Translations under genes and position numbers: made by a program | Assembly: GCA_951406725.2 (NCBI GenBank) | Contig: OX597835.1 | Location: 6,572,001 to 6,636,000, forward strand | Source: Octopus vulgaris | Lineage: Eukaryota | Reading direction: 5' to 3' | DNA: 64,000 bases | The notes under the pieces: generated by a model | Databases searched by the model: none | What the model saw: only the letters and a program-made list of their open reading frames with translations | What the model was told of the DNA's origin: nothing | Shown here: positions 904 through 62,728 of the stretch, piece after piece | How the letters are laid out: every line of letters starts with the position of its first letter | How positions within the stretch are numbered: position 1 is the stretch's first letter

Positions 904-1520
904 TATTGTTGATCTTGGTTGTAGATTTTCGTCTGCGTCTAACAAATAAGTTTCTGTAGAGTGGATTTAGAGATTTCATCCTTCCCGTGTCGATAAATTA
1001 AGTACCAGTTGAGTACTGGGGTTCGATATAATCGACTTAATCCGTCTGTCTGTCCTTGTTCGTCCCCTCTGTGTTTAGCCCCTTGTGGGCAATAAAGAAA
1101 TAGGTATTGCTGATCTTGGTTGTAGATTTTCATCTGCGTCTAACAAATAAGTTTCTGTAGAGTGAATATAGAGATAACTGATATTGTCGTCTTCATTGCC
1201 ATCACCACCTTCATCATCGTCACCATTTTCGTGATGGTGATGCACCATCACCTTTAACCCTTTCACATATCTGGCCTGCACATGATACTCATTTTATGTT
1301 CTAACCAGCCAAATCCACTCACAATGCTTTGGTCAGCCCGAGGCTATAGTAGAAGACACTTGCCCCCAAGATGCCGTGCAGTGGGATTGAACCTGGAACC
1401 TATGCCAGTATGGGAGACGGATGGTGACGATGGTGATGATATTACATTCGTTATGTATTGCTGTGTTGTTTATGTTACAGATGTGATCGTTGTTACATTG
1501 GTTGACTGTTTATGTTACAG

Positions 1521-1653
1521 GTATGACCGTTTATTGAAGGACGTCACCATAGCTTTGGTTGGTAAATACACACAACTAGAAGACGCTTACGCTTCGGTCA
1601 TAAAAGCCTTGAAGCATTCTTCCCTTGCTGTGAACCATCGTCTCAATTTAAGG
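1521..1653 (+). CDS. CTPS1: CTP synthase, internal exon (upstream exons lie outside the window)
   Basis: tgttacAG|g acceptor, agg|GTaagc donor; encodes (R)[44 protein letters not shown] with the [19 protein letters not shown] motif. Confidence 0.96.
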
Positions 1654-1762
1654 GTAAGCACTGTGAATGTTTTTGTATTTCATTAGTAATAACACAGTAA
1701 CTTATGTTACATAGTAACTTAAATTTCACGGTAGCTAGGTAGGTAGGAAGGTATGACATTAA

Positions 1763-1983
1763 CCCTTTAGTGTTCACATTATTCTGCCAAAATTAATCCT
1801 TTTTTATCCACTTTGTTTTGAACTAATCATGCATTATCTTGTAGCTATGAGAATTTGATGAGGCAGCTGTAAAATTTTAAAATGGTATTGTAGGGTTGGT
1901 GTGAGAGACCAGATCTGGCCAGTTTGAACATAAAACAGGCAGAATACTTTTGGCCGGATATGGCCGGTTTAAATGCTAAAGGG
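1763..1983. mobile_element. Non-autonomous piggyBac-type MITE
   Basis: TTAA TSD on both sides, termini CCCTTTAG...CTAAAGGG; multiple copies in the window. Confidence 0.88.
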
Positions 1984-2100
1984 TTAATAAATGTACCTAC
2001 CTAGCTACTGTGAAATTGTGGTTTATGGTGTGGGTGAGGTCTCTCAGTCAGGGTTGACCATTCCTCTGAAGACATACATGCAGGCCTGGGCATGACGATT

Positions 2101-2843
2101 TTAACCCTTTGATTATCATATTTCTTTTAAAACATGCATCCTTTGTTTCAATTAGATTTGAAAATATAAAGAATTTAGTACAGATCTTCGCAAGCAGAGT
2201 TTAGTGTTCAATTTTTTATAAAATACTAGCAGCATAGCCCGGCGTTGCCCGGGTATGTAAGAGCCCCTAGTTGGCAACGACTAATCCCAATCTAGTCCTT
2301 TCCCTCTAGGGAACGAAGGCGCATGTGTAGGTTGCAATGTCTTCTCTTCACTCGAATACTTCTGTGTATACGATGTTCCTAGCTGTCCCTTTGGGCGAAA
2401 ACATGGAAAACATCATTGCGCCTCCCAACGCGTGAACAGCCCACGTACAGCCCAGAAAATGTGTTGCATATAAAAAGCTTAGATTCTCGACCCCATGTCG
2501 AATTTATCGATTTCTTTCAGAACTGGGGGAACTTTTAAAAATTTTCGCTGCATTAGTTTTGAATTATGACATTGGGCTATGTGTGTGTCAAGTTTCATCA
2601 GAATCGGTTGAAAGCCGTGGTCAGGGTGAGGGTACAACCTGACAGACACACAGACTGCCGTTTATATATAGAAAGATATTTCATGTATTTCAATGAATTT
2701 TGAAAATAATGAAAATAATTAAATGGATGTTGGGAAATAGAAATGAATGAAATGGTTTAAATATAAACACTTTCAAATAGGAAAGTTTTTCTTTTTTTTT
2801 TATGGTGTGATGGTCTTTGATGGATTGGTATCAAAAAGGTTAA
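2101..2843. mobile_element. Second, older piggyBac-like MITE family, interrupted by a Helitron
   Basis: ttaaccctttgattatca ... tggtatcaaaaaggttaa termini; relatives at about 3755-3961, 14833-15078, 16695-16925. Confidence 0.5.
2226..2676 (-). mobile_element. Non-autonomous Helitron
   Basis: on the minus strand: 5' TC...TATATATAAA, subterminal hairpin cccgg-cgttgc-ccggg (2238-2253), 3' CTAG; inserted between A2225 and T2677 with no TSD. Confidence 0.8.
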
Positions 2844-2881
2844 TAATGATGGTGGTGATAATGATTCTGTTTTTATTGCAG

Positions 2882-2970
2882 TACATAGAAGCAGATGATC
2901 TGGAACTGGAGACCCAGAAAGAGAATCCAAGTAAATATCATGAGGCTTGGCACCAACTGGTTGGATCCAA
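2882..2970 (+). CDS. CTPS1: CTP synthase exon
   Basis: ttgcAG| ... aa|GTgagt; YIEADDLELETQKENPSKYHEAWHQLVGS; the His in YHEAW corresponds to the human CTPS1 filament-contact residue H355. Confidence 0.96.
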
Positions 2971-3000
2971 GTGAGTAATCTCTTGCAATTTGTGAGGATA

Positions 3001-3300
3001 TCATCATCATCATCGTTTAACATCCGTTTTCCATGCTAGCATGGGTTGGACGGTTCGACCAGGGTCTGGGAAACCAGGAGGCTGCACCAGGCTCCAGTCT
3101 GATCTGGCAGTGTTTCTACAGCTGGATGCCCTTCCTAACGCCAACCACTCCGCGATTGTAGTGGGTGCTTTTTACGTGCCACCTGCACAGGTGCCAGGCG
3201 AGGCTGGCATCGGCCACGATTCAGATGGTGCTTTTAATGTGCCATCGGCATGGAAGCCAGCCAAGGCGGCGCTGGCATCGGCCACGTTCGGATGGTGCTT
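3001..3300 (-). mobile_element. Retroposon 3' module family D ending in (GAT)n
   Basis: ggtggcacgtaaaaagcaccc...ggttggcgttaggaagggcatccagctgtagaaa...ggacgttaaacgatgatgat; other copies at about 6881-7190(+), 8005-8118(+), 8829-8978(+), 9410-9580(-), 16550-16660(+), 44538-44729(+). Confidence 0.8.
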
Positions 3301-4405
3301 ATATATATATATATATATATATTGAAAAGCATTTGTTGTTGTTACACATTATTGTAACAGATGAAGAAACACTTTTTTGTTGTGACTAAAGGAATTTATT
3401 GAATGTAACTGAAGTTTCACACACACACACACAAACACACATTCTCGCTCTCTCTCCCCTCCCCCATTTAGTCTTGTTGGTAACCTGTTATTTCACAAAA
3501 CAGCTCCAGGACTCTGTTTTGCCAACTACTTCTCAGAGATGGTTGATAAGGTCTAAACAAGTTTGGAAACTGTCTGAGGTGGATTCAAAGTTTTCTTTCT
3601 CTTAGAATGGAAAGTCTGTGCCATTTGTTGATTCTTAATGTTTTGCTATGTTGTTATTTTCACCTTATCGCTATTCCTAACATTTACTAAATTTCAGGAG
3701 TTTAGTTCCTGGGAAAGTCAATTAAGGGGTGGAGGAATTCTCGGATCCAGCCAATTAACCATTTTGTTACCATATTTCTGTTAAATTGCACTGCCTCTGT
3801 TTTAATTAATTTTGAAGATAATTTAATCAACTGCTATTCTTAATATGGAGTTTGGGACATAAATTAACGAGGAAGATTTTAATTTAGATCGTTTTGAAAC
3901 AGGGAAATTTGCATCATGGAACCATAGGCAGTCTTGGACAGGTTGGTATCAAAAGGGTCAAAATGTAAGATTTTCCCACTGAAAATTTTTAGAACAGAAA
4001 ATTTTTATGTCTTTTGTTTTTAAATTTTGACATCTTTTGACCGGTAGTACCGTCCATCATTCTATGACAATTTTCTCATTGAATTGGCACGAGTATATTA
4101 CAGGTACCAGTATTCATTGAGCTCTTAATTACAGAATGCAAACTGTATAAAGATGGCTTGGTGCTTTATGCTCTTCAATTTCTGATTCTCTAAGAATCCA
4201 AGACAATCACTTAATCTGGCAGTTCCACCATTTTCTGACAAGTCTCTGACTATTAAACCAAACAAGTGCTCCTCTCTCTCTATCCTTCTGGTTTTCCCCC
4301 TCTACCCTTTCCTCCCTCCTGTGTGTTTCAGTAGTATTGTAGATTAATTAGTATAATAATTATCACCTGGTAATTAGAGTAAATGTCGTTATTTTTACAT
4401 TGCAG

Positions 4406-4500
4406 TGGAATTCTAGTCCCTGGAGGCTTTGGCATCCGTGGAACAAATGGCAAAATCCAGGCTGCTAAATGGGCTCGAACGAACAAAATTCCATATTTGG
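4406..4500 (+). CDS. CTPS1: CTP synthase exon
   Basis: ttgcAG| ... g|GTatgt; (N)[36 protein letters not shown] oxyanion motif; phase matches neighbouring exons. Confidence 0.97.
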
Positions 4501-4514
4501 GTATGTAAATCATC

Positions 4515-4908
4515 TTAGGTTATTCTACTACTCCCCACCTTCCAGCCTCCTCCCTCTGCATTTTGCTCTCTGGTTGTCTCCTCTTGCCACCTCTCACTCT
4601 CAGGTCGTCTCCACCCACCGCCTCTTGCTCTCAGTTGTCTCCTCCCACTGGGTTTTCTCAGGTTATCTCCCTCTGTCGCTCTCAGGTTGTCTCCTCCCTC
4701 TGCCTCTCGCACTGTTTGTCTCCTCCCTCAGCCTCTCTTTCTCTGGTCATGTCTTCCCACCCTGGTCATCTCCCATCTCCTTTCCATCAGATTGTCTCCT
4801 GCTGCCTCTTGCTCTCCAGTCCTCTCCTCCTTCCTCCTTTCTGTCAGATTGTTTCCTCCCACTGAGTCTTACTCTCTAGTTGTCTCCCCTGCTGTCCTTT
4901 CTCGGGTT
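4515..4908. repeat. Degenerate pyrimidine-rich minisatellite in a CTPS intron
   Basis: recurring ctctcaggttgtctcctccc-like unit. Confidence 0.75.
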
Positions 4909-5636
4909 GTATATGTGTATATACGTGGAAAACCTGTGGCTTAATGTTTGGTGGTCATTTGGTTCATGATCATAAGATTGTGAGATTTATTCCCAACAGC
5001 GTGGTGTGTCCTTGAGCAAGACACTTTATTTCACGTTGCTCCAGTCCACTCATCTGACAAAAATGAGTAGTAATTCAGATGGGCCAACCATGTCAAATTC
5101 AATGTCAGGTAGAATCTTCCTGAGAACTACATTGAGTACATGCACCTGTGTGAGCAAGTGTCTTCTACAGCCTTGTAAGTGGATTTGGTAGATGGAATCT
5201 GAAAGAAGCCCATCGTGTGTATGTGTGTGTGTGTATATATATATTTGTATGTGTTTGTTCCCCAATACCATTGCTTGGTAACTGATGTTGGTGTGTTTAT
5301 GACCCCAAAGCTTAGCAGTTGGACAAACGAGATTGATAAAATAAGTACTAAGCTTACAAAGAATAAGTCTTGGGGGCCCAATTTCTTCGACTAAAGGCTG
5401 TGCTCCAGCATGGCCACAGTCAAATGACTGGAACATGTAAAAGAGTGTGTGTTTGTGGGAGCTCATGTAGCAATGAAGTAAAAACCTTAACTTTGGAATA
5501 AAGGAACAGAATGCATTTTTGCCCATGCATATACATGTATGGACCCAGTTGTGTAAGTGTTGTGATGAGAAAACCGTTTTGTGTTGAGCAAATGCAGAAT
5601 GTTAATATTTTATTCATCTCCTCAATTTCATTTCAG

Positions 5637-5743
5637 GAATTTGTCTCGGCCTGCAGTGTGCTGTTGTTGAATTTGCTCGCAATGTTCTTGGAATGGAAGA
5701 TGCCAGTTCTACTGAATTTAACCCTGACACAACATCCCCTGTG
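5637..5743 (+). CDS. CTPS1: CTP synthase exon (catalytic Cys)
   Basis: tttcAG| ... gtg|GTatgt; [36 protein letters not shown], class I GATase nucleophile GxCLG. Confidence 0.97.
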
Positions 5744-5835
5744 GTATGTTGACTCCCCAAATTACTTCACATTACAGTTTCTTTTTACGCATACCCCACA
5801 GCCAGTCTTACACATACCCTACAAATCTCAGCTGG

Positions 5836-5859
<24 letters not shown>

Positions 5860-5866
<7 letters not shown>

Positions 5867-6428
5867 TCAACCCCAGAAAGATAAAAGGTGGCATTTGAAC
5901 CCTGTGAAAACAGGTGAGATGCCACAGAGCATTTTGCCCCGCATGGCAGCTTGCTGCCTTCACCTTTCTATTAATATTAATAACCCTTTCTACTAAAGGT
6001 TCAAGACCTGAAATTTGGTGCGAAGGGTCTTGTCAATTTCATTGACCTCAGTGTTTCACTGGTACTTAATTTATCGACCCAGAAAGGACGAAAAGCAAAA
6101 CTGACCTCAATGGAATTTTGAACCTCAAACGCAGCGATGGACGAAATACTGTTAAGCATTTCGTCCAGCATGCTAAAGATTCTGCCAGTTCGCTGCCTTA
6201 ATAATAATAATAATCCTTTTTACTAAAGGCTCTAGGCCTGAAATATGGGGGAGGGCACTAGTTGACTATATAAACCCCACTGTTTCACTGGTACTTCATT
6301 TATTGACCCCAAAGTGATGAAAGTCAAAGTTGACCTTAGTGGAATTTGAACTCTGAATGCAGTGACAGGCGAAATACTGCTAAGGATTTCGTCCAGCGTG
6401 CTAACAATTCTGCCATTTCACTGCCTTA
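5860..6428 (-). mobile_element. Tandem run of diverged family A SINEs separated by (TAA)n
   Basis: repeated ctggtacttaatttatcgaccc...ggaatttgaactc...ttctgccagttcgctgcc blocks. Confidence 0.7.
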
Positions 6429-7459
6429 ATAATAATAATAATAATAATAATAAGAAAAGAATATGGTCTATTTGGTACAAGCGTTTGGCATCAACTCCAG
6501 GAAGACCAAAATTCTGTGAGAGGTGTGTGGAGTAGAATTGATCAAATAAGCTCTAGTTTGTTCCTGATATTTCTATGGTAAATAACTCTGGAAGGTTAAA
6601 TGGCAACATTGACTCTTCTGGTGTAATTTCATTTTGATGAACATAGGGGAACGTAAGAAACAACAATGGTACGTTGTCGATGCTTTTCACCATCTCTGAC
6701 ACCATATTCCCCCTTGTTTATTATCATTTGATAATGACACCTTGTAATTCTTTGTTGTTTGGTAATGATGACATAGAATTCTTTGGAAGTTATTTTGTTA
6801 ATGATGCTATATAATTCTTTGGTGCATAAAATTCTTTGTTTAAGAACATCGAAATAAATATCAATGGAAATAGTAGTTGTGATACCTGTGCTGGTGGCAC
6901 AAAGAAGGCACCATCCGAATGTGGCCGTTGTTGGCTCCCGTGCTGGTGGCACGTTAAAAGCTCCAACCGATCGTGGCCGGTGCCGGACCCTCCTGGCACC
7001 TGTGCAGGTGGCACGTAAAAAGCACCCACTACACTCGCGGAGTGGTTGGCGTCAGGAAGGGCATCCAGCTGTAGAAAATCTGCCAGATCAGACTGGAACC
7101 TGTTGCAGCATCCTGGCTTCCCAGACCCCGGTCGAACCATCCAACCCGTGCTAGCGTGGAAAACGGACGTTAAACGATGATGATGATGATTATTGGGTAA
7201 TGATGCCATAAAATTCTTTGATCATTTAGTAACGATGCTGAGTTCTTTAATCCTTTTAGCATTAAGAATCTTCTGTCAAATGTATTGCTTATTATTTATT
7301 CATATTGCCTTGAATTAATCATGCATTATCTTGTAGCATTAACACTTCAATGGTTTTGTTTTAGTTTTAGGACATTTTAGGGGTAGGTCTAAGAGGCTGG
7401 GTAAGGTCAGTTTGAACATAAAACAGCTGGAACATAGGGGCCGGATGTGGCCAGTTTAA

Positions 7460-7680
7460 CCCTTTAGTGTTCGCATTATTCTGCCAAAATTAATCCTTTT
7501 TTATCCACAATGTTTTGAACTAATCACGCCTTATCTTGTAGCTATGAGATTTTGATGAGGTAGCTGTTAATTTTTAAGATGATATTGTAGGGTTGGTGTG
7601 AGAGACCAGATATGGCCAGTTTGAACATAAAACAGGCAGAATACTTTTGGCCGGATATGGCCGGTTTAAATGCTAAAGGG
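7460..7680. mobile_element. piggyBac-type MITE nested in an older copy (7251-7695) of the same family
   Basis: TTAA at 7456-7459 and 7681-7684; near-identical to 1763-1983. Confidence 0.88.
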
Positions 7681-7759
7681 TTAAACACTAATGGGTTGAT
7701 CATTATTTAGTAATGATGTCCTACAGTTTGTTACCATATGATTCTTTATCTTATTTAAG

Positions 7760-7856
7760 GTTATTGAAATGCCGGAGCACAATCCTGGTAAATTAGGAGG
7801 AACAATGCGACTGGGGAAAAGGAAAACGATCTTCAGAAGCAATAAATCAATCACAA
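7760..7856 (+). CDS. CTPS1: CTP synthase exon
   Basis: ttaAG| ... a|GTaagt; [39 protein letters not shown] motif. Confidence 0.97.
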
Positions 7857-8140
7857 GTAAGTTGGCTTTTTTCTGTTTTGTTGTTGTTAATCAGTTCTAC
7901 AATCAATCATTGGTCAGGACCAATGGAAATGAAGAGTCTTGACCAGCGTGTGTTGTTATTGGTGATTAAGTAGCGTTAAAGGTTATTGGGCGATACATTA
8001 TAGCAGAAACTCTGCCAGATCAAGACTGGAGCCCGGTGCAGCCATCTGGTTCGCCAGCCCTCAGTGAAACCGTCCAACCCATGCTAGCATGGAAAGCGGA
8101 CGTTAAACGATGATGATGGTGATGGTGCGGCAAGCTGGCT

Positions 8141-8356
8141 AAGGCGGCGAGCTGGCAGAAACGTTAGCATGCCGGGCGAAATGCGCAGCTGTATTTCGTC
8201 GTTACGTTGTGAGTTCAAATTCTGCCGAGGTCGACTTTGCCTTTCATCCTTTCAGGGTCGATAAATTAAGTACCAGTTACGCACTGGAGTCAGTGTAATC
8301 GACTTAATACCTATGTCTGTCCTTGTTTAGCCCCTTGTGGGTAATAAAGAAATAGG
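8141..8356 (+). mobile_element. SINE family A
   Basis: near-identical to 670-903. Confidence 0.85.
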
Positions 8357-9106
8357 TATTTTTTAATTCAACCGTAGCCTCAAAATAGCATTCGGGTGGC
8401 AGACTATTCGTGTATGTTTAGATTTTGTAGAAGCTTCGATACACACACACACACACACACACTTCCCAGCCTTGTGGTTCTGGGTTCAGGCCTACTGTAT
8501 GGCACCTTGGGCAAGAAGTGTCTTTTACAATAGTCTCGGGATGACCAAAGCCTTCTGAGTAGAATGGAAACTGACTGAACAAAGGCTGCCGCTTGTGCGA
8601 GTATTTGAACGTGTGTGTCCCAGCCCCACCACACTGCTTGACAACCGGTGTTGGTGTGTTTGCACCCCCACCCCCTCAGCGTAGTGGTTCGGCAAAAGAG
8701 ACCAATGGGATAAGTACCAGATTTGAAACGTGTGTGTGTGTTGTTGTTGTTGCGGTGTGAATAAATAGGCTTTACATTTGACAGTAATTTGGATGCTAAA
8801 CTTCCATCAAAATTAACACTTGTTATTGGGTTGGCGTTAGGAAGGGCATCCAGCTGTAGAAACACTGCCAGATCAGACTGGAGCCTGGTGCAGCCTTCTG
8901 GCTTCCCAGATCCCCCGGTTGAACCATCCAACCCATGCTAGCATGGAGAGAACGGACGTTAAACGATGATGATGATGATTCTGCTTAATTCTTCTTCTTC
9001 ATTTTCAAATTTAAATTAGATAACAACTGTATTTCAACAGAAATATAACGAAAGAGCTACGACTCCAGCAGATGATAACGTTTAACAATCTCTCTTTTTT
9101 CTTCAG

Positions 9107-9162
9107 AGAAATTATATGGAGATGTTGATTTTGTTGAAGAACGTCACCGGCATCGCTACGAA
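9107..9162 (+). CDS. CTPS1: CTP synthase exon
   Basis: ttcAG| ... gaa|GTaagt; (K)KLYGDVDFVEERHRHRYE, ERHRHRYE motif. Confidence 0.97.
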
Positions 9163-9902
9163 GTAAGTACCATTTGAACCTTCAACCTTTTGAAAATCAG
9201 CGTAAACTGAAACCGGTTAGATCTTAAATAATTTTAACTATTCTCAATGCATTTTCAACTTCGATTTTTCCTATATTTCTACCTGTGTGGAATAAAATAA
9301 CATTATTTTCTTCACACACACATACACTGTGTGTGTGTGTATATTGTTTTAATGTGCATTTCTCTATCCTATCACGAGTCGGGTGACACTCATGTTCACA
9401 AGCGCCTGTCTGTTTTCCATGCTGTCATAGATTGCATGATTTGACCAGAGCTGGTTGGCTAGAAGACTGCCCTGAGCTCTGCTGTGCTGTATGCTTTGGA
9501 AGGGTTTTTTTACAGCCGGACGCTCTTTATAATGCCTACCACATCACAGAGTGCACCGGGTGCTTTTTATGTCGCACCTGTGAGGTCACCTGGTAACTGG
9601 CAAGACAGATGACCTCAAATGAGAGAAGGGGTCTAGTATTGGGGGGAAGTGAATTTGTGTCAAGTGATGAGAGGTTAAGCTACCCCCACACATAATGTTT
9701 TCATTATTTTAATGTCCACTTTTCCACACCTTTCAAACATTCTCTCTCTCACACACACACACACACACACTTGCATACATGTTCTCAATCTTGCATACAC
9801 GTTCTCACTCACTCACCTACATGTTCGCACTGGGGCAATAGAAGACACTGGGACTGAAGCTGTAGAACCATGTGCTTGCAAAGTGAAATATTTAACTACA
9901 CA

Positions 9903-10010
<108 letters not shown>

Positions 10011-10065
10011 TTCAGAACAGTCTCCTTCTACAAATATTTCCACATTTTCTTCATGTCTTTTCCAG

Positions 10066-10162
10066 GTTAACCCAGATTACGTTGGAGAATTAGAGAAACA
10101 TGGAATGATGTTCTGGGGTCGGAGCGAAGATGGAAAGAGAATGGAAGTAATGGAACTGGAAG
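10066..10162 (+). CDS. CTPS1: CTP synthase exon
   Basis: tccAG| ... g|GTcagt; VNPDYVGELEKHGMMFWGRSEDGKRMEVMELE. Confidence 0.96.
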
Positions 10163-10827
10163 GTCAGTCTCTCTCCTTACCATTTTAGGAATTGACCTGG
10201 TGGTGGTGGCAGCACAGGCAATTGTAAGGGTAGTAGTAGTGGTGGTGAGGCTTGATATAGTTGGGGGAAGAATAGCAGCATTAATCCTCTGGCATTTAAA
10301 TTCATGTAAAAAAAAAAAGTAAAAGCATTTATTTTTTCATGTTTGAAATTAAGGATTTCAAAATGATAGTCTGAAAGAAATCAATATAAAATTATTGAAG
10401 TGTACAAATAAATTATTAAGCATGCAAAATTACGTCTAAAAACTCTACGAAAATAACACCTCAAAAATCAAATTTGAAAAAATTTTTCCGAAGAATTGGA
10501 CAGAATTTTCTGAACAACCTAATATATATATGACGGACTCTCCCGTCGTTAGATGACATGAGAGTATGACAGTTTCTTACCGAGCAACAACACATGATTT
10601 GTTTGTAGTGATCAAATGTTTGTGTAGAGATAAGCTCACTCCTGCCATTAGATCGATATTACCTGTACAGGTGCCACATGTCAGGTGTCAAAATAATCGC
10701 AATGTGAAATGAAGTGCTTTGCCCAAGAATACAATGCAATACCCGGTCTGGGAATCGAACCCACGATCTTACAGTCATGAGTGCAGCACCTTAACCACTA
10801 AACCATGCATATGTAACATATACATGT

Positions 10828-11140
10828 ATCACTATGATCACCGTGACCGACCAGGCTATCAGATGTTGCTACACATCGCTGGTCACAATGCGCTTTGCAT
10901 TGTTTTAGCCTTCAAATGACGCCACCCCGCTGGCTAGGCGAGCAGGCCAACAGAAGAGAGAGTGAGAGAAAGTTGTGGCGAAAGAGTACAGCTGGGATTG
11001 CCACCACCCCCTGCTGGAGCCTCGTGGAGCTTTAGGTGTTTTTGCTCAATAAACACTCACAATTCCTGGTCTGGGAATGGAAACCGCGATCCTACAACCA
11101 CGTGTGCACTGCCCTAACCACTGGGCCATTGCGCCTCCAC
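10828..11140 (-). mobile_element. SINE with family C head and a different 3' module
   Basis: similarity to family C stops near 10955; remaining 3' part is unrelated. Confidence 0.75.
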
Positions 11141-11506
11141 ACATATACATATATGTGTATGTACATATACATATGTGTATGTATGTATACATGTGTGTCC
11201 ATGTATACACACACACAACAGGCTTCCACACAGTTTCCATCTACCAAATTCATTCTCAAGGTATTGGTTGTCCTGAAAGCACAGTAGGCTGTTTCCTCAA
11301 AGTGCTGCTTAGTAGGAATGAACTACAAATCCCTTGGTTGGAAGACCAGCTTCTTAACCACACAGCCATGCTTATATAAAGTTTCGTTTAGAAATCTGAA
11401 GTTGGTGGGGGAAGACTTCAACCCCGTCAGATCTGGCCTTGGGGGTCAGTTTGTCTGATAGGTCATGCAGTAATTGTCTAATACCATTGACTTGTTCTTG
11501 TTGCAG

Positions 11507-11865
11507 ATCATCCATACTATGTGGCGGTGCAGTACCATCCCGAGTACATCTCGCGTCCTCTGAAACCATCACCTCCCTATCTCGGTCTGTTGCTAGCGGC
11601 GACGGGCAAGCTGAAGAACTTCTGTAAACACGGCAACCTGTTGTCTTCGCAGATGTCTTACGCCGACGAATTCGAAGATGAACTGTGCGAGTCTGTGAGG
11701 GAGAAAATTAACATGAAACAGAATGGATTTATCAGAGGGAATGGAATTATCAAAGAAAACGGTATCATCAAAGAGAATGGAATCCCCACAGAGAATGGAA
11801 TTATCAAAGAGAATGGAATTTTAACAAATGGTGCTATGAATGGTTGGACTGACAGTGAATTATAA
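11507..11865 (+). CDS. CTPS1: CTP synthase terminal coding exon (catalytic His-Glu, stop codon)
   Basis: ttgcAG|; (D)[28 protein letters not shown]..., HPE catalytic motif; TAA at 11863-11865 after an NG-repeat tail. Confidence 0.94.
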
Positions 11866-20743: not shown

Positions 20744-21666
20744 TAGTTGAAATTTATAGAAAAACAAAAGATGAAGACAGGTGTAGGAACAACAAGCAAG
20801 TGTATTAGTTGGATGCTCGGGGAAAATGGAAAAGTCTTTTACGTTTTGAGCCTACACTCTTCGACATAAAGGAACAAGAGTAAATATATAGGGAGAGAAT
20901 GGAACCCCCCCCCCCAAAAAAAACGTGTAGAGTTCATCGGTTCAGCATGGCGAATGATTGGAAATATATATTACGTGTGTGTTTTAGTCTCTTCTTTTAC
21001 AGGAACTTCTCAGCACCCATCGAATGTTATATAGACCAGCAGAATAAACACCAGATTATAAAAGAAAAAGGTACTGAGGTCAATTTGTTCGTTTAAAAGT
21101 CTTCGAGGTGGTGCTTCAGCATGGCCGCAGTCTAATGACTGAAACAAGGAGAAGATAAAAGATAGCCGAGGACCATACTGCGATGTGGTATAGTATACAG
21201 TCCTTTAACGAGCGGGGCAAGATTGAATTGAATGCCTTTAGGTTTAACGAGTAGCAATTATGAGATGATATTCCATTTAAGTATAGCATTTTGGGAGTAA
21301 GAATATTCCCAATGCTATAAAAAAAAAAAGAAAAAAATGACATTTTGCTTAAGGTGCTAGTTGGTATGATCGAACCCGGAACCTCTTTGTCGCATCGACA
21401 CGATCGGGACAAGTTTACCGTAGCTCAATTTCAAGGGAGGTCACTCTGGTCTATTTGTATTTATCCAAGGGAAATAACTCTAATAGCTTACCGTAAAAAT
21501 CAGTCTTGCAGACGACAAACCCGTTTTGTTTAAATGTTTGTTGTTAAAAGCGAAAGATATTCTTTGTAGCAATTTAATCATTAAAAAACAATTAATGAGA
21601 ATATTGAGAGATTAGTAAAACATTAATTTAGTGCAAAGTTGAGGGAGAATATTTAAAATGAACAGA

Positions 21667-33486: not shown

Positions 33487-33552
<66 letters not shown>

Positions 33553-33652
33553 ATCCAAACATGAAAGCACGAAAAAAAAAAAACACAACAACGCGAGGAC
33601 GTGGAACAAATATAGTATTATTGGACGCTCAGGAAAGAAGGAAAGAAGGAGG

Positions 33653-33687
33653 GTTTAACGTTTCGAGCGGAGCTCTTCGTCGGAAAC
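33653..33687 (-). ncRNA. Minimal hammerhead motif (U4C core variant)
   Basis: GUUU-CCGACGA-A-GAGC-UCC-GCUC-GAAAC-GUU-AAAC. Confidence 0.68.
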
Positions 33688-33832
33688 ATAGGAGAAGGAA
33701 AGATCCAGAGAAGGGAAGACAGAGGAAAACAATCGCCAACGGTACACACGCGGTATATACATATACATATATATGAATATATGACATACCACACACACAC
33801 ACACAAATGTATTTATATAACGATTGAATAAG

Positions 33833-36944: not shown

Positions 36945-37993
36945 GTAAAGAAGCTGAAACTGCTCGCGATATCAACGAAACGTTTGGTGAGGAAATGACC
37001 AGTGAGTGGTCAGTTCGAAAATCGTTTAAACGATTTCGCAGTGGAGACCTGAGCCTTGAAGATCGTGAGCGTAGTGGAAGCCTATCTGTCATCGATGATG
37101 GTCAATTAGAGACCGTCATTGAGAAAGATCCACGTAAAACCACTCAACAACTGGCAAAAGAACTTCAAGTTAGCCAGAAAACTGCCTGCAACCATTTGCA
37201 TGCGATCGGAAAAATATAAAAAGCTTTACAAATGAGCACCACACGATTTGAATGAAAATCAGAAAATGCCCAGATATGAAATTTGCGCATCTCTTCCCCG
37301 TAACCAGACCGATCCATTTTTCGGCCGTATTGTAATTTGCGATGAAAAGTGGATTCTGTACAATAATAAAAAACGTTCTTCGCAGTGGTTGGACCAAAAT
37401 GAAGCACCGAAAGTCTTCCCTACACCAGAGATCTTCAAAATGAAGGTCATGGTGACTGTGTGGTGGTGTACTGCTGGACTCATCGACTATAGCTTCTTAA
37501 AATCAGGGAAAACAATCACTGCAGAAACATATTGCTATGAAATTGCCAAAATGAACGAAAAACTGCTACTCCTCTGTCCTAGACTGGTCAACAGAAGAGA
37601 GCCAATCATTCTTCATAACAATGTTTGACCACATGTTTCACAAATGACATTCCCGAAGTTGAGGGAATTTGGTTACAAAGTTCTTCCCCATCCAGCTTAT
37701 TTCCCAGACCTTTCTCCCCCCAACAACAACCACTTTTTCAAGCACCTTGATGGTTTCCTGCGAGAGAAGGAGTTCAAAAACCAAACCGATGCTGAAAATG
37801 CATTAAGAGAGTTCATCAGCTCCAGAACTCCAGGTTTTTATGTTTGCGGAATAAACAAACTTTTGACTCGTTGGCAAAAAACGTGTTGATTGTAATGGCG
37901 CTTATTCTGATGAATAAAATTTCTGCGTCGTTGAAACATATTGTGATGAATTTCACGTTTCAAAACGTTGCTTCCTTTTCACTCATCCTGACA
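36945..37993 (+). pseudogene. Mariner (DD34D) transposase pseudogene, 5' end lost
   Basis: AETARDINETFG, FKRFRSGDLSLEDRERSG, IVICDEKWILYNN, KVMVTVWW, LHNNV*PH, HPAYFPDLSP; frameshifts, stops, second and third catalytic Asp changed. Confidence 0.92.
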
Positions 37994-46720: not shown

Positions 46721-46999
46721 TACACTCATATATATACATACACTCATATATGTATATATATATATATATATATATGTATAAAAGAGATATCAAAACCAAG
46801 CCATCTAAAGGAGAAAGCTAAGCAATGAAAACAAAAAAGAAATAAATAATAAAAATAAAAGCAAAGAGGGGAAAAAAAAAGCAAAGCAACAACAAAAAAA
46901 AAAGACACTTTTCTTTTCTTGCTTTCTTCTTTCGTGGAAGAAGTGGAACTTGTTGGTGATTTGCCGCGGCTAAGAAAGGGGGTTGGTTGTTGGCTACAT

Positions 47000-47965
47000 A
47001 TGTTTGTGTCACTCTTCTATGATTCTAAGCAGTTCTCTCCACAGTCGATCGTCGGATCAAGGTGCTGCTGTCCCATCCAGTTCCTCGCTTTGGTCTTGAT
47101 CTTCGGAGTTTTCCTGTCGGGGATCTCTTGCGTTCCGTCTCGACATGCTCTCGCTTCTCCGTCCGACGACCACCAGGAAACGGTCGAGAAACTCCACCAC
47201 CTCCAACATCATCACCACCACCACCACCACCATCGCCGCCACCAACAACACCACCAGCACCAAAACCTCCACCGCCACCAACAACAACATCACCACCACC
47301 ACCACCGCAATGAAAACCACCACCGCCATCATCATCATCAACCACACTACCACCAACACCAGCCCCACCACCCTCGCCAGCACCAGCACCAACACCACCA
47401 GCATCATCAGCAGCGGCAGCAGCACCGCCTTGTCGGTGTTGTCGTTCCCACCGCTGTCAACGCCACCACCACCACCACTACTACCACTAACCCCATCGCT
47501 ACCACCACCACCACTACCAGAGGATCTGTTCTTGCTGTCGCCTCTGCCGTTGTTGTCAAGAGTGAAAGAGAGGAGAAGAGGGCGCCACTGTTGTCGTCAT
47601 CGTCGAATTTGTCACATGAACAGAAAACAACCCATCTGAGATTGTCCTCACCATCGCCTTCTTCTTCTTCGCCTTCGCCTTCTTCTTCTTCTTCTTCTTC
47701 TTCTTCTTCTTCTTCTTCTTCTTCTTCTTCTTCTTCTTCTCCCTCCCCTTCTTCTTTGCTTCTGTATTCTTTGGCCGAGACAACAATAAGAAATGCTAGA
47801 AAGAAGGAAGAAAAAGTTCCGGAGACATTGGTGAAGACTTCAGTGCCGGAATCCGTTGGAAGGAAAATACCGCAAGGACAAAACCGGGAAAGCCATCACC
47901 AACACCGACAACAATACCATCACCACCACCACCGACACCTTAGTAACAACAGCAGCAGCAGTACT

Positions 47966-48023
<58 letters not shown>

Positions 48024-48475
48024 TTAAGAATGATAGTCATTACCACTTTCAACAGAGATGGTCAAGGAAGAAACGGCAAGTGCAATTACTAATTGATAGG
48101 AACAGTGGTTTGGTCACACTACCACCACCGCTACCACCATCAGCATCGCTAGCCTCATCATCGTTGTCGTCATCATCACCATCCTCCTCCTCCTCATCAT
48201 CATCATCGTTGACGTCGCCACCGTCGTCTCCCTTAACGCTGTCGCAACCTTCGTCATCATCGACACCGTACTACTCCCCGCCTCGACCACCTCTGCCGGT
48301 ACCGCTTCTGCGGCCGTCCCCATCTTCTCTACCCCTGAAGACATCGCCGCCACTGCCACCGCATGGATTAGAAACCGCACTATTGTCCGAGGAAGATTTG
48401 AAGCGACAACAGCAACGAGAAGAACAACCACACTTGGAGAATGCCAGGAACAACAAGACCAATCGCAGAGCCACA
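47000..48475 (+). CDS. Probable first coding exon of an unidentified secreted or membrane protein with His/Gln-, Thr-, Ser-, Asn- and Pro-rich tracts
   Basis: ATG at 47000 lies in a 540-codon open frame; hydrophobic signal-like segment [19 protein letters not shown]; furin-type RKKR; higher GC than flanks; ends at a GTGAGT donor (48476) just before TA microsatellite. No recognisable domain and no downstream exon found. Confidence 0.55.
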
Positions 48476-48834
48476 GTGAGTCTCTCTTCTTTTATAATGA
48501 TATCTCTATGCATGCATGTCTATCTATCTATCTATCTATAAATATATATATAATATATATGTATATATATATATATATATATATACATATATATATACAT
48601 ATATATATTTATATATATGTATATATATATGTGTATTTATGTATATATATATATATGTATATATATGTATACATATATGTATATATATGTATATATATAT
48701 ATACATATATATATGTATATATAAATATGTATATATTTATATATATGTATATATATATATATGTATTTATATGTGTATATACATATATATATATGTATAT
48801 ACATATGTACATATTTGTGTATACACACACACAG

Positions 48835-52037: not shown

Positions 52038-52444
52038 TATATATCTGTAAATATAATATGTGACAATTATTCAGTAACCATGATAAAACATGGGGCAGAA
52101 ACCCACGTTGGCATCTCTTCAGTTATCGGGCCATCGAAAAAAATGCTATGATGGCCCAATAACTGAAGAGATAGCGGTGTGAGTTTCCTGCCTGACATTT
52201 GAAACTCAGAGTTTTATCATGGCTACCCAATAATTGTCACATATTATACTTACAGATAAATTCCTCTATTTACATAATGTTGAGGTCTCTTTCTTTCTTT
52301 TGTTGTCTTACCATTTCTAGCAATATATATATATATACATACACACACATACACAAACATATATACTTGTGTGTCTGTATGTATATGTATATATATTTAT
52401 ATATATGTATTTATGTATGTGTGTGTGTGTATCTTTCTCTCTCT

Positions 52445-56819: not shown

Positions 56820-57210
56820 GGAATATGGAAGCACTCCGTCGGTTACGACGACGAGGGTTCCGGTTGATCCGAATCAACGGAACAGCCTGTTCGTGAAATT
56901 AACGTGTAAGTGGCTGAGCACTCCACAGACACGCGTACCCTTAACGTAGTTCTCGAGGAGATTCAGCGTGACACAGAGAGTGACAAGGCTGGCCCCTTGA
57001 AATACATGTACAACAGAAACAGGAAGTAAGAGTGAGAGAAAGTTGTGGTGAAAGAGTACAGCAGGGATCACCACCATCCCTTGCCGGAGCCTCGTGGAGC
57101 TTTAGGTGTTTTCGCTCAATAAACACTCACAACGCACGGTCTGGGAATCGAAACCGCGATCCTACGACCGCGAGTCCGCTGCCCTAACCACTGGGCCATT
57201 GCGCCTCCAC
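56820..57210 (-). mobile_element. tRNA-derived SINE family C
   Basis: tRNA-like head gtggaggcgcaatggcccagtggttagggc...ggtttcgattccc; 13-bp TSD agcagcccatgat (56807-56819/57211-57223). Confidence 0.9.
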
Positions 57211-57465: not shown

Positions 57466-57975
57466 TCACTTTTCAATAAACTTGCTAGAAGGCAGCATTT
57501 CCTTCTCCACCCCGACTTTCCTCTTCAAGTAAAACTTGAAGAAGTTGATGAGGGTCTGACCAAAGAGGAAAGTGTCTGACTTTAGCTCTTTCAAACGCGT
57601 CCACCATACCACCTCTTTCGCTACAGGCACCAGACAAATAAAAAAAAATTGCCTGCTCCTCCCGTCCAAAGGAGGACGACTGGGAAATCTTCACTTTGTA
57701 TTCAGCTGACAGCCGGATCCGTCCCACACGCGACAGCGGGTGCTCGGGCACTGGACGATAGCGTACAGAGCGGTTTCGTCTCTCTGCGCGCACCTCGGGC
57801 AAGCACCGCTGACGGCACTTCCGTCCTTGTAAAGTTTATCCCGAACAGGCAGCGCACTTCGGTAGCACTACCAGGCGAGAGGTTTCTGGAAGTTATCCAT
57901 AGGCCCCGACCGGAAAGTCCTCCAGAGATTCGTTACCCACCTCCTCTATGATGTAGTGCATGAGGTGGAGCTTGT
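57466..57975 (-). mobile_element. L1/Tx1-type LINE ORF2 C-terminal fragment
   Basis: ALPVRDKLYK...ACPRCAQRDETALYAIVQCP zinc-knuckle remnant, followed by AKEVVWWTR. Confidence 0.7.
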
Positions 57976-57990
57976 CGCGAATATTAATTT

Positions 57991-58520
57991 TCAAACGATA
58001 CATCTGTTGTCCATCACGCAACATTGGACGTGGCGAATATCACACGCAGTTAAAATAGAAGAATGACCTGGAAAATATTCCTTGTTTAGCCATCCAGAAG
58101 CTTTGTACTTCTGAATTATTTTGGTAACCGTGTCTGAGCTCAGATGTATTCGTTTTCTAATTATCTTGTATCCTAAACCATTCTTGTGCAAATTAAAAAA
58201 TAGTTTTCTTCAAATATGCAGACAGTTCTTTTCCCTTTGGTGCCATTTTAATCCCAATGAAGAAGATAATCACAATTCCTGCAGATAGAATAACAATGAC
58301 CGGTGCCAAAAATACCAGGAGAAATAATTTATTAGAATTGAAATTATCAGTAATATCTGAATTAAGTAAAAAAGAAAAAAAGGATAAAATATTGAATATA
58401 GCAAATTTCCTTTAGGGTGTACATATTTTTGTAACGTTTGAAAATTAATATTTCATTCACTATCTTTGAAAATGTTTATTGTTTTGTGTTCCAAATAAGT
58501 ATAATGCTTGTATGTGTAAT
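57991..58520 (-). pseudogene. Tc1-like transposon 5' fragment
   Basis: ATG at 58246, MAPKGKELS, then a frameshift into LHKNGLGYKIIRKRIHLSSDTVTKIIQKYK (paired-like HTH). Confidence 0.75.
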
Positions 58521-58549: not shown

Positions 58550-58956
58550 GGCGCAGGAGTGGCTGTGTGGTAAGTAGCTTGCTTACCAACCACATGGTTC
58601 CGGGTTCAGTCCCACTGCGTGGCATCTTGGGCAAGTGTCTTCTTCTATAGCCTCGGGCCGACCAAAGCCTTGTGAGTGGATTTGGTAGACGGAAACTGAA
58701 AGAAGCCCGTCGTATATATGTATATATATGTGTGTGTGTATGTTTGTGTGTCTGTGTTTGTCCCCCTAGCATTGTTTGACAACCGATGCTGGTGTGTTTA
58801 TGTCCCCGTTACTTAGCGGTTCGGCAAAAGAGACCGATAGAATAAGTACTGGGCTTACAAAAGAATAAGTCCCGGGGTCGAGTTGCTCGATTAAAGGCGG
58901 TGCTCCAGCATGGCCGCAGTCAAAATGACTGAAACAAGGAAAAGAGAAAGAGAGAA

Positions 58957-59041: not shown

Positions 59042-59529
59042 TGAGGTCTGACCAAAAAGTATCAGAACTGTTTCTATGATAACGGAGCTTAAGTACGCTG
59101 TTGTCTGAAGCAGTGCTTGCGAGTAAAGTGTGTCGAGTGTGGTCGTCGGACAAAATTGCATACCTCTAGTGAGAGGTAACTTTACCATGAAAACGCAGCT
59201 GCTCTTTCAGCGCAGCTTGTGCAGCAGATCTGGGCCGAGTATACACTATTCCCCCGGCTCGACAACCACCGTGTTTCCTAGATCTCGCTTCTTGCGACTT
59301 TCACCTCTTACCCCAAAATCAAATCTCGTTTGAAAGGATGTGACGAGGCAGCTGCACGCTATCCCCAGAAAAGGAGATCCAGGAATGCTTCCATTGATGG
59401 AAACGACGCTCCATAAAGTGTGTGGCTTCAGAGGGGACAACTGTGAAGGAGATCAAATGGTGGATTGATATGGCTTGTAGTTCTCTTTTTATAGTAGTAC
59501 TAGTCCCAACTCTCTTTCATCAGACCTCG
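59042..59529 (+). mobile_element. Internally deleted mariner element
   Basis: TIRs tgaggtctgaccaaaaag / ctctttcatcagacctcg(TA); remnants HENAAA, DLASCDF, KSRLKG, KCVASEG. Confidence 0.8.
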
Positions 59530-59533
59530 TATA

Positions 59534-59603
<70 letters not shown>

Positions 59604-59682
59604 GGTCCCGGGTTGAGTCGGGGTTAACCACAGTAAATAAGGTACTCAATACATAGCAGAGTAAATTAATTTATTATATAGA

Positions 59683-59739
59683 AGGAGCTTCTACAGGACT
59701 AGAACTGTTTCATTCAAAAGAAATCATCAGGAAGCTCCT
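59683..59739 (-). ncRNA. Type I hammerhead ribozyme motif (mirror copy on + at 59733-59781)
   Basis: AGGAGCUUC-CUGAUGA-UUUC-UUUU-GAAU-GAAA-CAG-UUCUAGUC-CU-GUA-GAAGCUCCU. Confidence 0.82.
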
Positions 59740-59797
59740 GATGATTTCTTTTGAATGAAACAGTTCTAGTCCTGTAGAAGCTCCTTCTATATAATAA

Positions 59798-59876
<79 letters not shown>

Positions 59877-60065
59877 AGGAGACACAGAGAGAGAATAGTC
59901 AGTGCAGTCTTCTCTTGATATGGGGCCCAATTTGGAGAAATCTGTCTAATTGGCTTAAAACCTACCCTGTATATATATATACACTTTGAGGCAAAAAGAA
60001 TATCGTCCGGCATTCGCCATTATAGATCGCTAGCCACTACACATTATCTGTCTCTTTCTGTGTTC

Positions 60066-60101
60066 CTTTCTGTGCGAGAGCGTAGGCTCGAAACGTTAAA
60101 G
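60066..60101 (+). ncRNA. Minimal hammerhead-like motif with a non-canonical first box
   Basis: CUUU-CUGUGCGA-GAGC-GUAG-GCUC-GAAAC-GUU-AAAG; decayed homolog at 20836-20871(-). Confidence 0.55.
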
Positions 60102-60310
60102 ACTTTTTCACTTCCCGAGCGTTATACTAATACATCTGTTTGTTGTCTACACCACCTGTCTTCGTCTAGTGTTTTTTTGTGAATTCTCCCTATATATATA
60201 TACGGTCATGCACACATACACACGCACACACACACACATATATATGTGTGTATGTGAATGTATATTTATATATGTATATATATGTGTATATATATATATA
60301 TATGTATGTT

Positions 60311-61508: not shown

Positions 61509-61897
61509 GGAATGGAAGCTCTCCGTCGGTTACGACGATGAGGGTTCCAGTTGATCCGAATCAACGGAACAGCCTGCTCGTGAAATTAACGTGTAAGTGG
61601 CTGAGCACTCCACAGACACGTGTACCCTTAACGTAGTTCTCAGGAATATTCAGCGTGACAGAGAGTGACAAGGCCGGCCCTTTGAAATACAGGTACAACA
61701 GAAACAGGAAGTAAGAGTGAGAGAAAGTTGTGGTGAAAGAGTACAGCAGGGATCACCACCATCCCCTGTCGGAGCCTCGTGGAGCTTTTAGGTGTTTTCG
61801 CTCAATAAACACTCACAACGCCCGGTCTGGGAATCGAAACCGCGATCCTATGACCGCGAGTCCGCTGCCCTAACCACTGGGCCATTGCGCCTCCACT
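61509..61897 (-). mobile_element. SINE family C inserted into an RTE LINE
   Basis: 14-bp TSD agttggttccccat (61495-61508/61898-61911). Confidence 0.9.
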
Positions 61898-61952: not shown

Positions 61953-62183
61953 AGCGGTGAGCTGGCAGAAACGTTAGCACACCGGGCGAAATGTGTAGCC
62001 GTATTTCGTCTGGCATTACGTTCTGAGTTCAAATTCCGCCGAGGTCGACTTTACCTTTCATCCTTTCGGGGTCGATAAATTAAGTACCAGTTACGCACTG
62101 GGGTCGATATAACCGACTTAATCCGTTTGTCTGTCCTTGTTTGTCCCCTCTATGTTTAACCCCTTGTGGGTAGTAAAGACATA
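61953..62183 (+). mobile_element. SINE family A inserted into an RTE LINE
   Basis: 12-bp TSD acctctgccttc (61941-61952/62184-62195). Confidence 0.9.
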
Positions 62184-62728
62184 ACCTCTGCCTTCTGAGT
62201 ACTAATTGTGAAGCGAAAGTTGTCGCAGGAAGTGGTAAAACAGTTCATGCTCTGCTGCATTTGAGGCTCTGTGGTGGCGTTGAGTGCCAAGTCGTCGGTG
62301 AACGGGAAGTTCACACTGAGTCCTCTTTCGCGTTGGTCGTGGCGTGTGGCCTGCTGGCTAAATAGTCTGCCATCTCTCCTGAATCTGATCTTGACGTCGG
62401 TTTCGTCGTTGTTGCGGAAGGCTTCTGACAGCATGGTTGAGATCATCATGCTGAAAATCGTAGGTGCGTGTACACAGCCCTGCTTGACTCCATTAATGAC
62501 TAGGAATGTGTCGGAAGAAACTCCACTGTCCAGCATCCGAGCAAGCATATCGCCGTGAAACTGATGCATCCTGTTGATGAATTGAAGGTGAAATAAAGCA
62601 GTTGTACTACTGCCTACGCTACTGAATGCCTCTGACACTTGGACGGTTTACGAACGCCACACCAAACGGCTAAACTGCTTTATACACGAACAGTTTGAGA
62701 AAGATGTTGAAAATCACCTGGCAAGACA

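Follow-up and report, generated by a model that had tools for sequence, protein, structure and literature searches.

A palindrome with 65-bp arms built on a hammerhead motif in Octopus vulgaris probably formed during Penelope-type insertion

How did a perfect palindrome come to carry a hammerhead ribozyme motif on each strand, and does its hairpin have a role? The locus lies in 64 kb of Octopus vulgaris sequence (the window, meaning the whole stretch analysed), which is animal DNA with many microsatellites and transposon fragments. A sequence-only reading had described a palindrome with 65-bp arms and a 3-nt loop, and this is what we find: the arms are exact reverse complements flanking AGC and cannot be extended. 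The palindrome (59668-59800) is the sole perfect inverted repeat in the window with arms of at least 14 bp, other than (TA)n and (TG)n runs. Its hairpin has a folding energy of -106.8 kcal/mol on either strand (z of -23 on the plus strand and -28 on the minus strand), and 0 of 200 shuffles reach this value.

The palindrome is the inverted end of a 200-bp element (59601-59800) set between two (TA)n runs (Table 1). The element reads in the sense direction on the minus strand, where the hammerhead comes first and about 80 nt separate it from the 3′ end. A second copy, inverted and lacking the last 67 nt of the long one, makes up the plus-strand arm and meets the long copy head-to-head; this mirrored arm stops precisely at the centre of a 12-bp AT palindrome (59667/59668). 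The border between the 67-nt tail and the TA run, near 59601, is uncertain by 1-2 bases, and the tail is covered by contigs of the repeat family in all four sequencing runs used. There is no RT or GIY-YIG endonuclease ORF inside or beside the 200 bp. A MITE or foldback DNA transposon is ruled out by the one-sided 67-nt overhang and by non-mirror sequence at the centre in many copies. Within the window there is no second direct copy of the hammerhead unit, and a non-LTR retrozyme (head-to-tail tandem units, each with a hammerhead) was rejected on that scope.

Table 1. Features of the palindrome element and its flanks (positions in the window)
Feature	Position	Strand	Basis
(TA)n run, left flank, likely insertion target	59529..59600	.	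sequence; target-site duplication unreadable within the run
67-nt 3′ extension (tail) of the long copy, with no counterpart in the inverted one	59601..59667	-	
12-bp AT-only palindrome containing ATT	59662..59673	.	sequence
Left arm (long copy, minus strand as sense)	59668..59732	-	
Type I hammerhead motif	59683..59739	-	sequence, descriptor match, folding, family contigs
Second hammerhead core, interrupted stem I, predicted cut 59776/59777	59729..59785	+	folding; weaker than the minus-strand motif
Symmetry centre, within self-complementary AGCT (59733-59736), outer edge of native stem I	59733..59735	.	
Right arm (inverted copy without tail, joined head-to-head to the long one)	59736..59800	+	
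(TA)n run, right flank, then (GA)n	59801..59851	.	sequence

Both strands have the core of a hammerhead (CUGANGA, GAAA, the A15.1-U16.1 pair, and a UH cleavage site with the triplet GUA). On the minus strand the order is the 5′ strand of stem I (59739-59731), CUGAUGA (59730-59724), GAAA (59711-59708), stem III, GUA (59694-59692), and the 3′ strand of stem I (59691-59683), and cleavage is predicted between 59692 and 59691. The claim of a full minus-strand hammerhead stands for the core, the GUA triplet and the presence of stem I. It does not stand for a stem I of 9 bp. The native helix pairs 59736-59731 with 59691-59686 (6 bp), because the usual upstream sequence of the family departs at 59736; the other 3 bp of the copy at 59683-59739 are supplied by the inversion, and the native loop I is lost in it. 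Our own type I hammerhead descriptor, run on the window and on 20 shuffles, matched this motif and one poor site at 52163, with no match in the shuffles.

The other helices of the minus-strand motif are weaker. Stem II has 3 bp with a U·U mismatch at 10.1-11.1 in place of the canonical closing pair (predicted pair probabilities 0.13-0.18), a weakness overlooked in the earlier reading, and the U·U position has no listed variants in the family. Hammerheads with U10.1-U11.1 are a natural variant able to cleave (PMC3088659), and the axolotl HHR_Amex2, with U·U at the base of helix II, was 22% cleaved in 1 h as a monomer (PMC7229834). Stem III, of 3 bp plus the core pair, closes an 8-nt loop and is predicted with a probability of 0.35. 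Folding the minus arm alone gives a solid stem I (pair probabilities 0.81-1.0) and places the hammerhead fold 1.9 kcal/mol above the minimum.

For the plus strand, the description of the same ribozyme with one bulge in stem I is right about the core and understates the damage to the stem. Stem I is interrupted after 2 bp; a single bulge leaves a 5-bp helix (-1.7 kcal/mol), and 8 bp are reached only with a second bulge, at -5.0 against a minimum of -9.4 kcal/mol. The hammerhead fold of the plus arm is at least 4.4 kcal/mol above its own minimum, and the type I descriptor did not pick it up in the window. Rfam gave no match to the element at gathering score, and its 96 matches by E-value include no hammerhead; the best hammerhead score on a single arm was 13.7 bits (Hammerhead_3, cut-off 48.5, E=1). 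A microRNA precursor (mir-1781) was rejected at 54.2 bits against a gathering score of 68; the score is equal on both strands, as in a generic match to a long hairpin.

Over the whole element the hairpin is more stable than the ribozyme fold by 74.0 kcal/mol (minus) and 79.9 kcal/mol (plus), and in folds of successive minus-strand prefixes it closes before the hammerhead core is complete. Folding thus predicts that both ribozymes are locked by the hairpin, in agreement with the suggestion that the palindrome inhibits itself. A read-through RNA of the element is predicted to hold 65 bp of perfect double-stranded RNA.

The surrounding repeat family was followed in contigs from 4 of 24 listed sequencing runs (X1, X2, X4 and X9, from four studies), aligned to 59596-59808. 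The numbers of contigs fitted were 7981, 438, 984 and 111, and the parent family is a very high-copy, common animal repeat. Behind 59736, 35, 8, 14 and 2 contigs have non-mirror letters (agreement 0.63-0.83), and the upstream loose end of the family is visible for 30 letters. A longer element therefore continues upstream, and the copy at 59601-59800 is 5′-truncated where stem I has its outer edge. In other contigs both 3′ ends (59601 and 59668/59800) pass into microsatellite, as shown by depth at 59596-603 and 59804-808 and by loose ends at positions 59600 and 59667. Estimates of variant frequency and copy number from these contigs were discarded as unreliable on a palindromic reference. The exact 26-base core pattern had no match in metagenome contigs and none in viral contigs; the absence there of a link between the family and an autonomous PLE counts against a PLE-type origin.

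Other copies also have head-to-head joints, at stem I and at about 30 further points, so the inversion is no isolated event. The centre becomes gap-free with an extra T behind 59735, which 16, 1, 3 and 1 contigs of the four runs carry; the summed depths, which are not copy numbers, are 30,887, 842, 2,140 and 68, and the best-supported other head-to-head joint has 1,135. The stem I joint appears to be the commonest, and a few joints fall near the cut site (59690-59695). Among the best 15 of the roughly 30 other joints, 7 are symmetric within 6 nt (P 0.01-0.07 across the range of nulls), and with five extra rows of table 5c of the analysis 11 of 20 are (P 0.0002-0.006); the null is our own crude uniform model applied to the best-supported joints after trial of three thresholds, and palindromes that lose their centre by deletion would equally yield symmetric-looking joints.

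Placement on the palindrome is ambiguous, with 5070 of the 7981 X1 contigs fitting two places, and some contigs with the extra T may therefore be ordinary copies set on the wrong arm. In X9, ordinary copies were placed on the left (depth 14,009 at 59735 and 81 at 59742), which argues against this explanation for that run only. Of all contig records, 32 were listed and 9528 further ones lay outside the listing. The centre is crossed by four of the 32 (X1 nos. 7 and 8, X2 no. 15, X9 no. 32), with 3-10 differences from the window, and these are therefore other copies; none of the eight listed X4 records crosses it. The only gap-free crossing among them is X9 no. 32, with 24 letters on one side, under the 31 used by the tool. 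No listed record spans the whole stretch or bridges the 59601-59800 locus to unique flanks.

The reading we lean towards is that the element is a protein-free 200-bp piece of a hammerhead repeat that was inserted into (TA)n by PLE machinery, with one cDNA folding back at stem I. An endonuclease would have nicked AT-rich DNA, and RT would have begun at the outer 3′ end (59601). Because the copy extends past the cut site, the template RNA was uncleaved and would have been read through the whole hammerhead; this also rules out fold-back at the cleavage site itself. RT may then have halted at the outer edge of stem I, leaving a cDNA 3′ end that closes with AGCT and is complementary to its own copy of stem I. 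Priming from this fold-back would have copied 65 nt back. At the centre, either 3 nt may have been added on the stem I copy before a slip onto a 4-bp tip hairpin, or 1 nt may have been lost from a gap-free centre. The AT palindrome, which lies 67 nt from the start, would then be where the second end was resolved, and this would account for the one-sided tail. The ATT within that palindrome may be tied to the cut preference of PLE endonucleases, since ATT is the preferred motif of one such enzyme in vitro (PMC11167929). The product is most likely a functionless by-product.

Folding of the expected cDNA as DNA (plus strand 59680-59736) pairs its 3′ end with the stem I copy at -4.6 kcal/mol, and at -8.9 kcal/mol after 3 more bases. 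The local tip hairpin is weak (-1.2 kcal/mol) and absent if the cDNA ends at 59736, which counts against fold-back. To our knowledge PLEs have no RNase H, whereas fold-back requires removal of the RNA, and this counts against it too. The earlier suggestion of a recent fold-back or template switch at the ribozyme stem is plausible in its mechanism, which recurs in the family. Its word "recent" is harder to sustain: although the two arms match exactly, the family itself is homogeneous and repair may even out differences within hairpins. A PLE-like RT remnant in the window counts for a PLE-type origin. Such an origin, by whichever priming route, we regard as probable. That stem I is a self-priming point for the whole family, the ribozyme helix re-forming in the cDNA and turning RT round, is a tentative extension that we doubt.

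The other route to a PLE-type origin is double priming, in which each cut strand primes its own cDNA, one beginning at a start site that includes the tail and the other at a site that omits it, and the ends join through AGCT. It accounts directly for the one-sided tail, and a PLE protein has been found to cut and extend the two strands, beginning at two sites that set the limits of the tail (PMC11167929). Two ends annealed at AGCT would produce a centre with no gap, as the extra T at 59735 implies. Independent truncations predict broad offsets, yet the joints lean symmetric. The arms are also identical at 65 of 65 positions, including the mirror pairs of the family-variable positions 59676, 59742, 59749 and 59750, a weak point since the window may carry the majority letters. 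We consider double priming unlikely, though a serious competitor. A later inversion of an ordinary copy at the DNA level, by template switching in replication or by break repair at fragile (TA)n, would suit the long (TA)n runs on both flanks, and symmetric joints are also compatible with hairpin-based repair. The mirror is nevertheless confined to the element and ends at a 3′ end used by other copies, the upstream part of the element is entirely missing, and the layout is the published PLE insertion pattern, which together make this origin very unlikely.

Perfect arms at a locus that no listed record bridges to unique flanks could also point to a fold-back chimera at a repeat, made in the library or the assembly. 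Such structures trouble short-read assemblies (PMC8557442), and the roughly tenfold higher share of the extra T in X1 (19%, against 1.8, 1.7 and 0.5% in X2, X4 and X9) could reflect library differences. Contigs of three studies, however, cross the centre with substitutions of their own at depths of 11-64, and the asymmetric tail and the defined second end in the element also speak against an artefact, which we hold to be highly improbable. Least probable of all is a hairpin kept by selection as a Dicer or ADAR substrate that represses the rest of its family, as the sequence-only reading had proposed. Its basis is the perfect duplex predicted in any read-through RNA, and in transgenic Drosophila siRNAs did match the inverted parts of Penelope copies that had been rearranged (PMC3681739). 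The locus gives no sign of selection, such joints occur in many copies, the fly siRNAs silenced inefficiently (PMC3681739), and no host exon was recognised nearby among 77 frames (short exons would escape).

The window has other short repeats next to TA runs. One (59982-60190, plus strand) lies between TA runs 180 bp from the palindrome and includes a degenerate motif like a minimal hammerhead at about 60066-60103 (4-bp stem II, GAAA, palindromic stem III); a relative at 20751-20876 (minus strand) is 78% identical. A third (33549-33756, minus strand) adjoins a (TA)n run, is distantly alignable with the repeat at 60 kb, and has a minimal hammerhead like published PLE motifs, with one core change, an extra base after A9, G10.1-C11.1 and a palindromic stem III. 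A direct repeat of at least 210 bp (57000-57210 and 61685-61896, families D9 and D10) is 97-98% identical over 4.7 kb of separation and lies either side of the palindrome region. A SINE-like repeat of about 390 bp (58550-58940) also matches 25 more places in the window, in whole or in part. Transposon fragments lie at 37236-37628, 57694-58209 and 62156-62647 (mariner-type DDE, zf-RVT, Sleeping Beauty-type HTH and LINE RT).

A 560-aa low-complexity open frame (46859-48541, plus strand) has an early hydrophobic stretch, a basic RKKR motif and no Pfam match. Judged from its sequence, it is possibly a secreted protein's first exon; the palindrome would then lie in an intron. Exon-like pieces at 1258-11865 (plus strand), which we take to resemble the glutaminase half of CTP synthase, include a weak GATase match (11494-11862). 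Pfam searches of 77 frames (the 560-aa frame at 46862 and 76 of 99 complex frames) found transposon fragments and one weak UPF0425 match only. A bacterial promoter and terminator scan gave 0 sites; its models are bacterial and not apt for animal DNA.

As a single locus the palindrome matters little, being one among many inverted insertions of a common repeat. The family, with its thousands of short copies, allows two questions to be addressed by counting: the way PLE inverted ends arise and the function of PLE hammerheads. Its layout has already been described for PLE insertions, of which it is a further instance, and production of siRNA by inverted Penelope copies is likewise already published. 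One lead is fresh: fold-back may have its hot spot in the cDNA copy of stem I. The literature searched, seen partly as excerpts, is sparse in subscription papers and has the 2005-2006 PLE reviews and the 2017 Terminon paper outside it; within it we found no statement of a PLE junction at hammerhead stem I. An octopus repeat annotation makes no mention of ribozymes or palindromes in the portions of its main text used here (PMC13282606). The origin of PLE inverted ends is called unresolved in an excerpt of PMC8557442. Self-priming at stem I, if true, would account for the inverted pLTRs of Penelope, would give PLE hammerheads a role free of cleavage, and would mean that the family keeps seeding hairpin loci against itself. 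A concentration of joints at stem I, with both arms identical, would make a structural role of the ribozyme helix directly testable in the existing in vitro system.

Published PLE insertions have inverted pLTRs head-to-head with junction palindromes and a one-sided tail, and self-priming on an antisense template has been proposed for them (PMC3846280), a view that, as given in the text drawn on, counts against fold-back of one cDNA. General traits are an inverted 5′-truncated copy, a one-sided tail of 30-40 bp and a bias to microsatellites (PMC8557442), restated for curators (PMC8969392). In vitro, unprocessed RNA is the main PLE substrate, cleavage is dispensable, and two RT starts define the tail (PMC11167929). 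Measured against the excerpts of PMC3846280, PMC8557442 and PMC8969392, the octopus element appears to work like a PLE inverted end with incomplete PLE membership (no ORF, a longer tail, a parent untraced). It shares the 5′-truncated copy with an adjacent inverted one, head-to-head with a junction palindrome, as well as the tail at one end only, the microsatellite target, the hammerhead near the 3′ end and the dispersed high copy number. Unlike endonuclease-bearing PLEs it has no ORF and no direct pLTR pair; its one-sided extension is 67 nt in place of the published 30-40, and its junction lies at hammerhead stem I, which those excerpts do not mention.

PLE hammerheads occur in pLTRs, as dispersed solo motifs, and in Schistosoma as opposite-strand pairs 100-700 bp apart (PMC4209133). 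The octopus motif is likewise type I and widespread in single copies. It differs from the account there in that its stem III is full, with an 8-nt loop, and its stem II short, where PLE motifs have a minimal palindromic stem III, and its two copies overlap at stem I, unlike the Schistosoma pairs. A 2026 preprint traces animal retrozymes to pLTRs (10.64898/2026.07.22.740005). With the axolotl HHR_Amex2 (PMC7229834) and the U10.1-U11.1 hammerheads (PMC3088659) the octopus motif shares type I topology and U·U at the base of helix II; the axolotl non-LTR retrozymes are head-to-tail tandems that give RNA circles, whereas the octopus copy is a truncated head-to-head pair. Inverted Penelope copies give siRNAs that do not silence the element efficiently (PMC3681739). 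In that system the siRNAs were seen in small-RNA data, while the octopus case is known from sequence and has a duplex of 65 bp; like the long inverted repeats of rearranged Penelope, it is predicted to yield a hairpin RNA from the element's own inverted copy.
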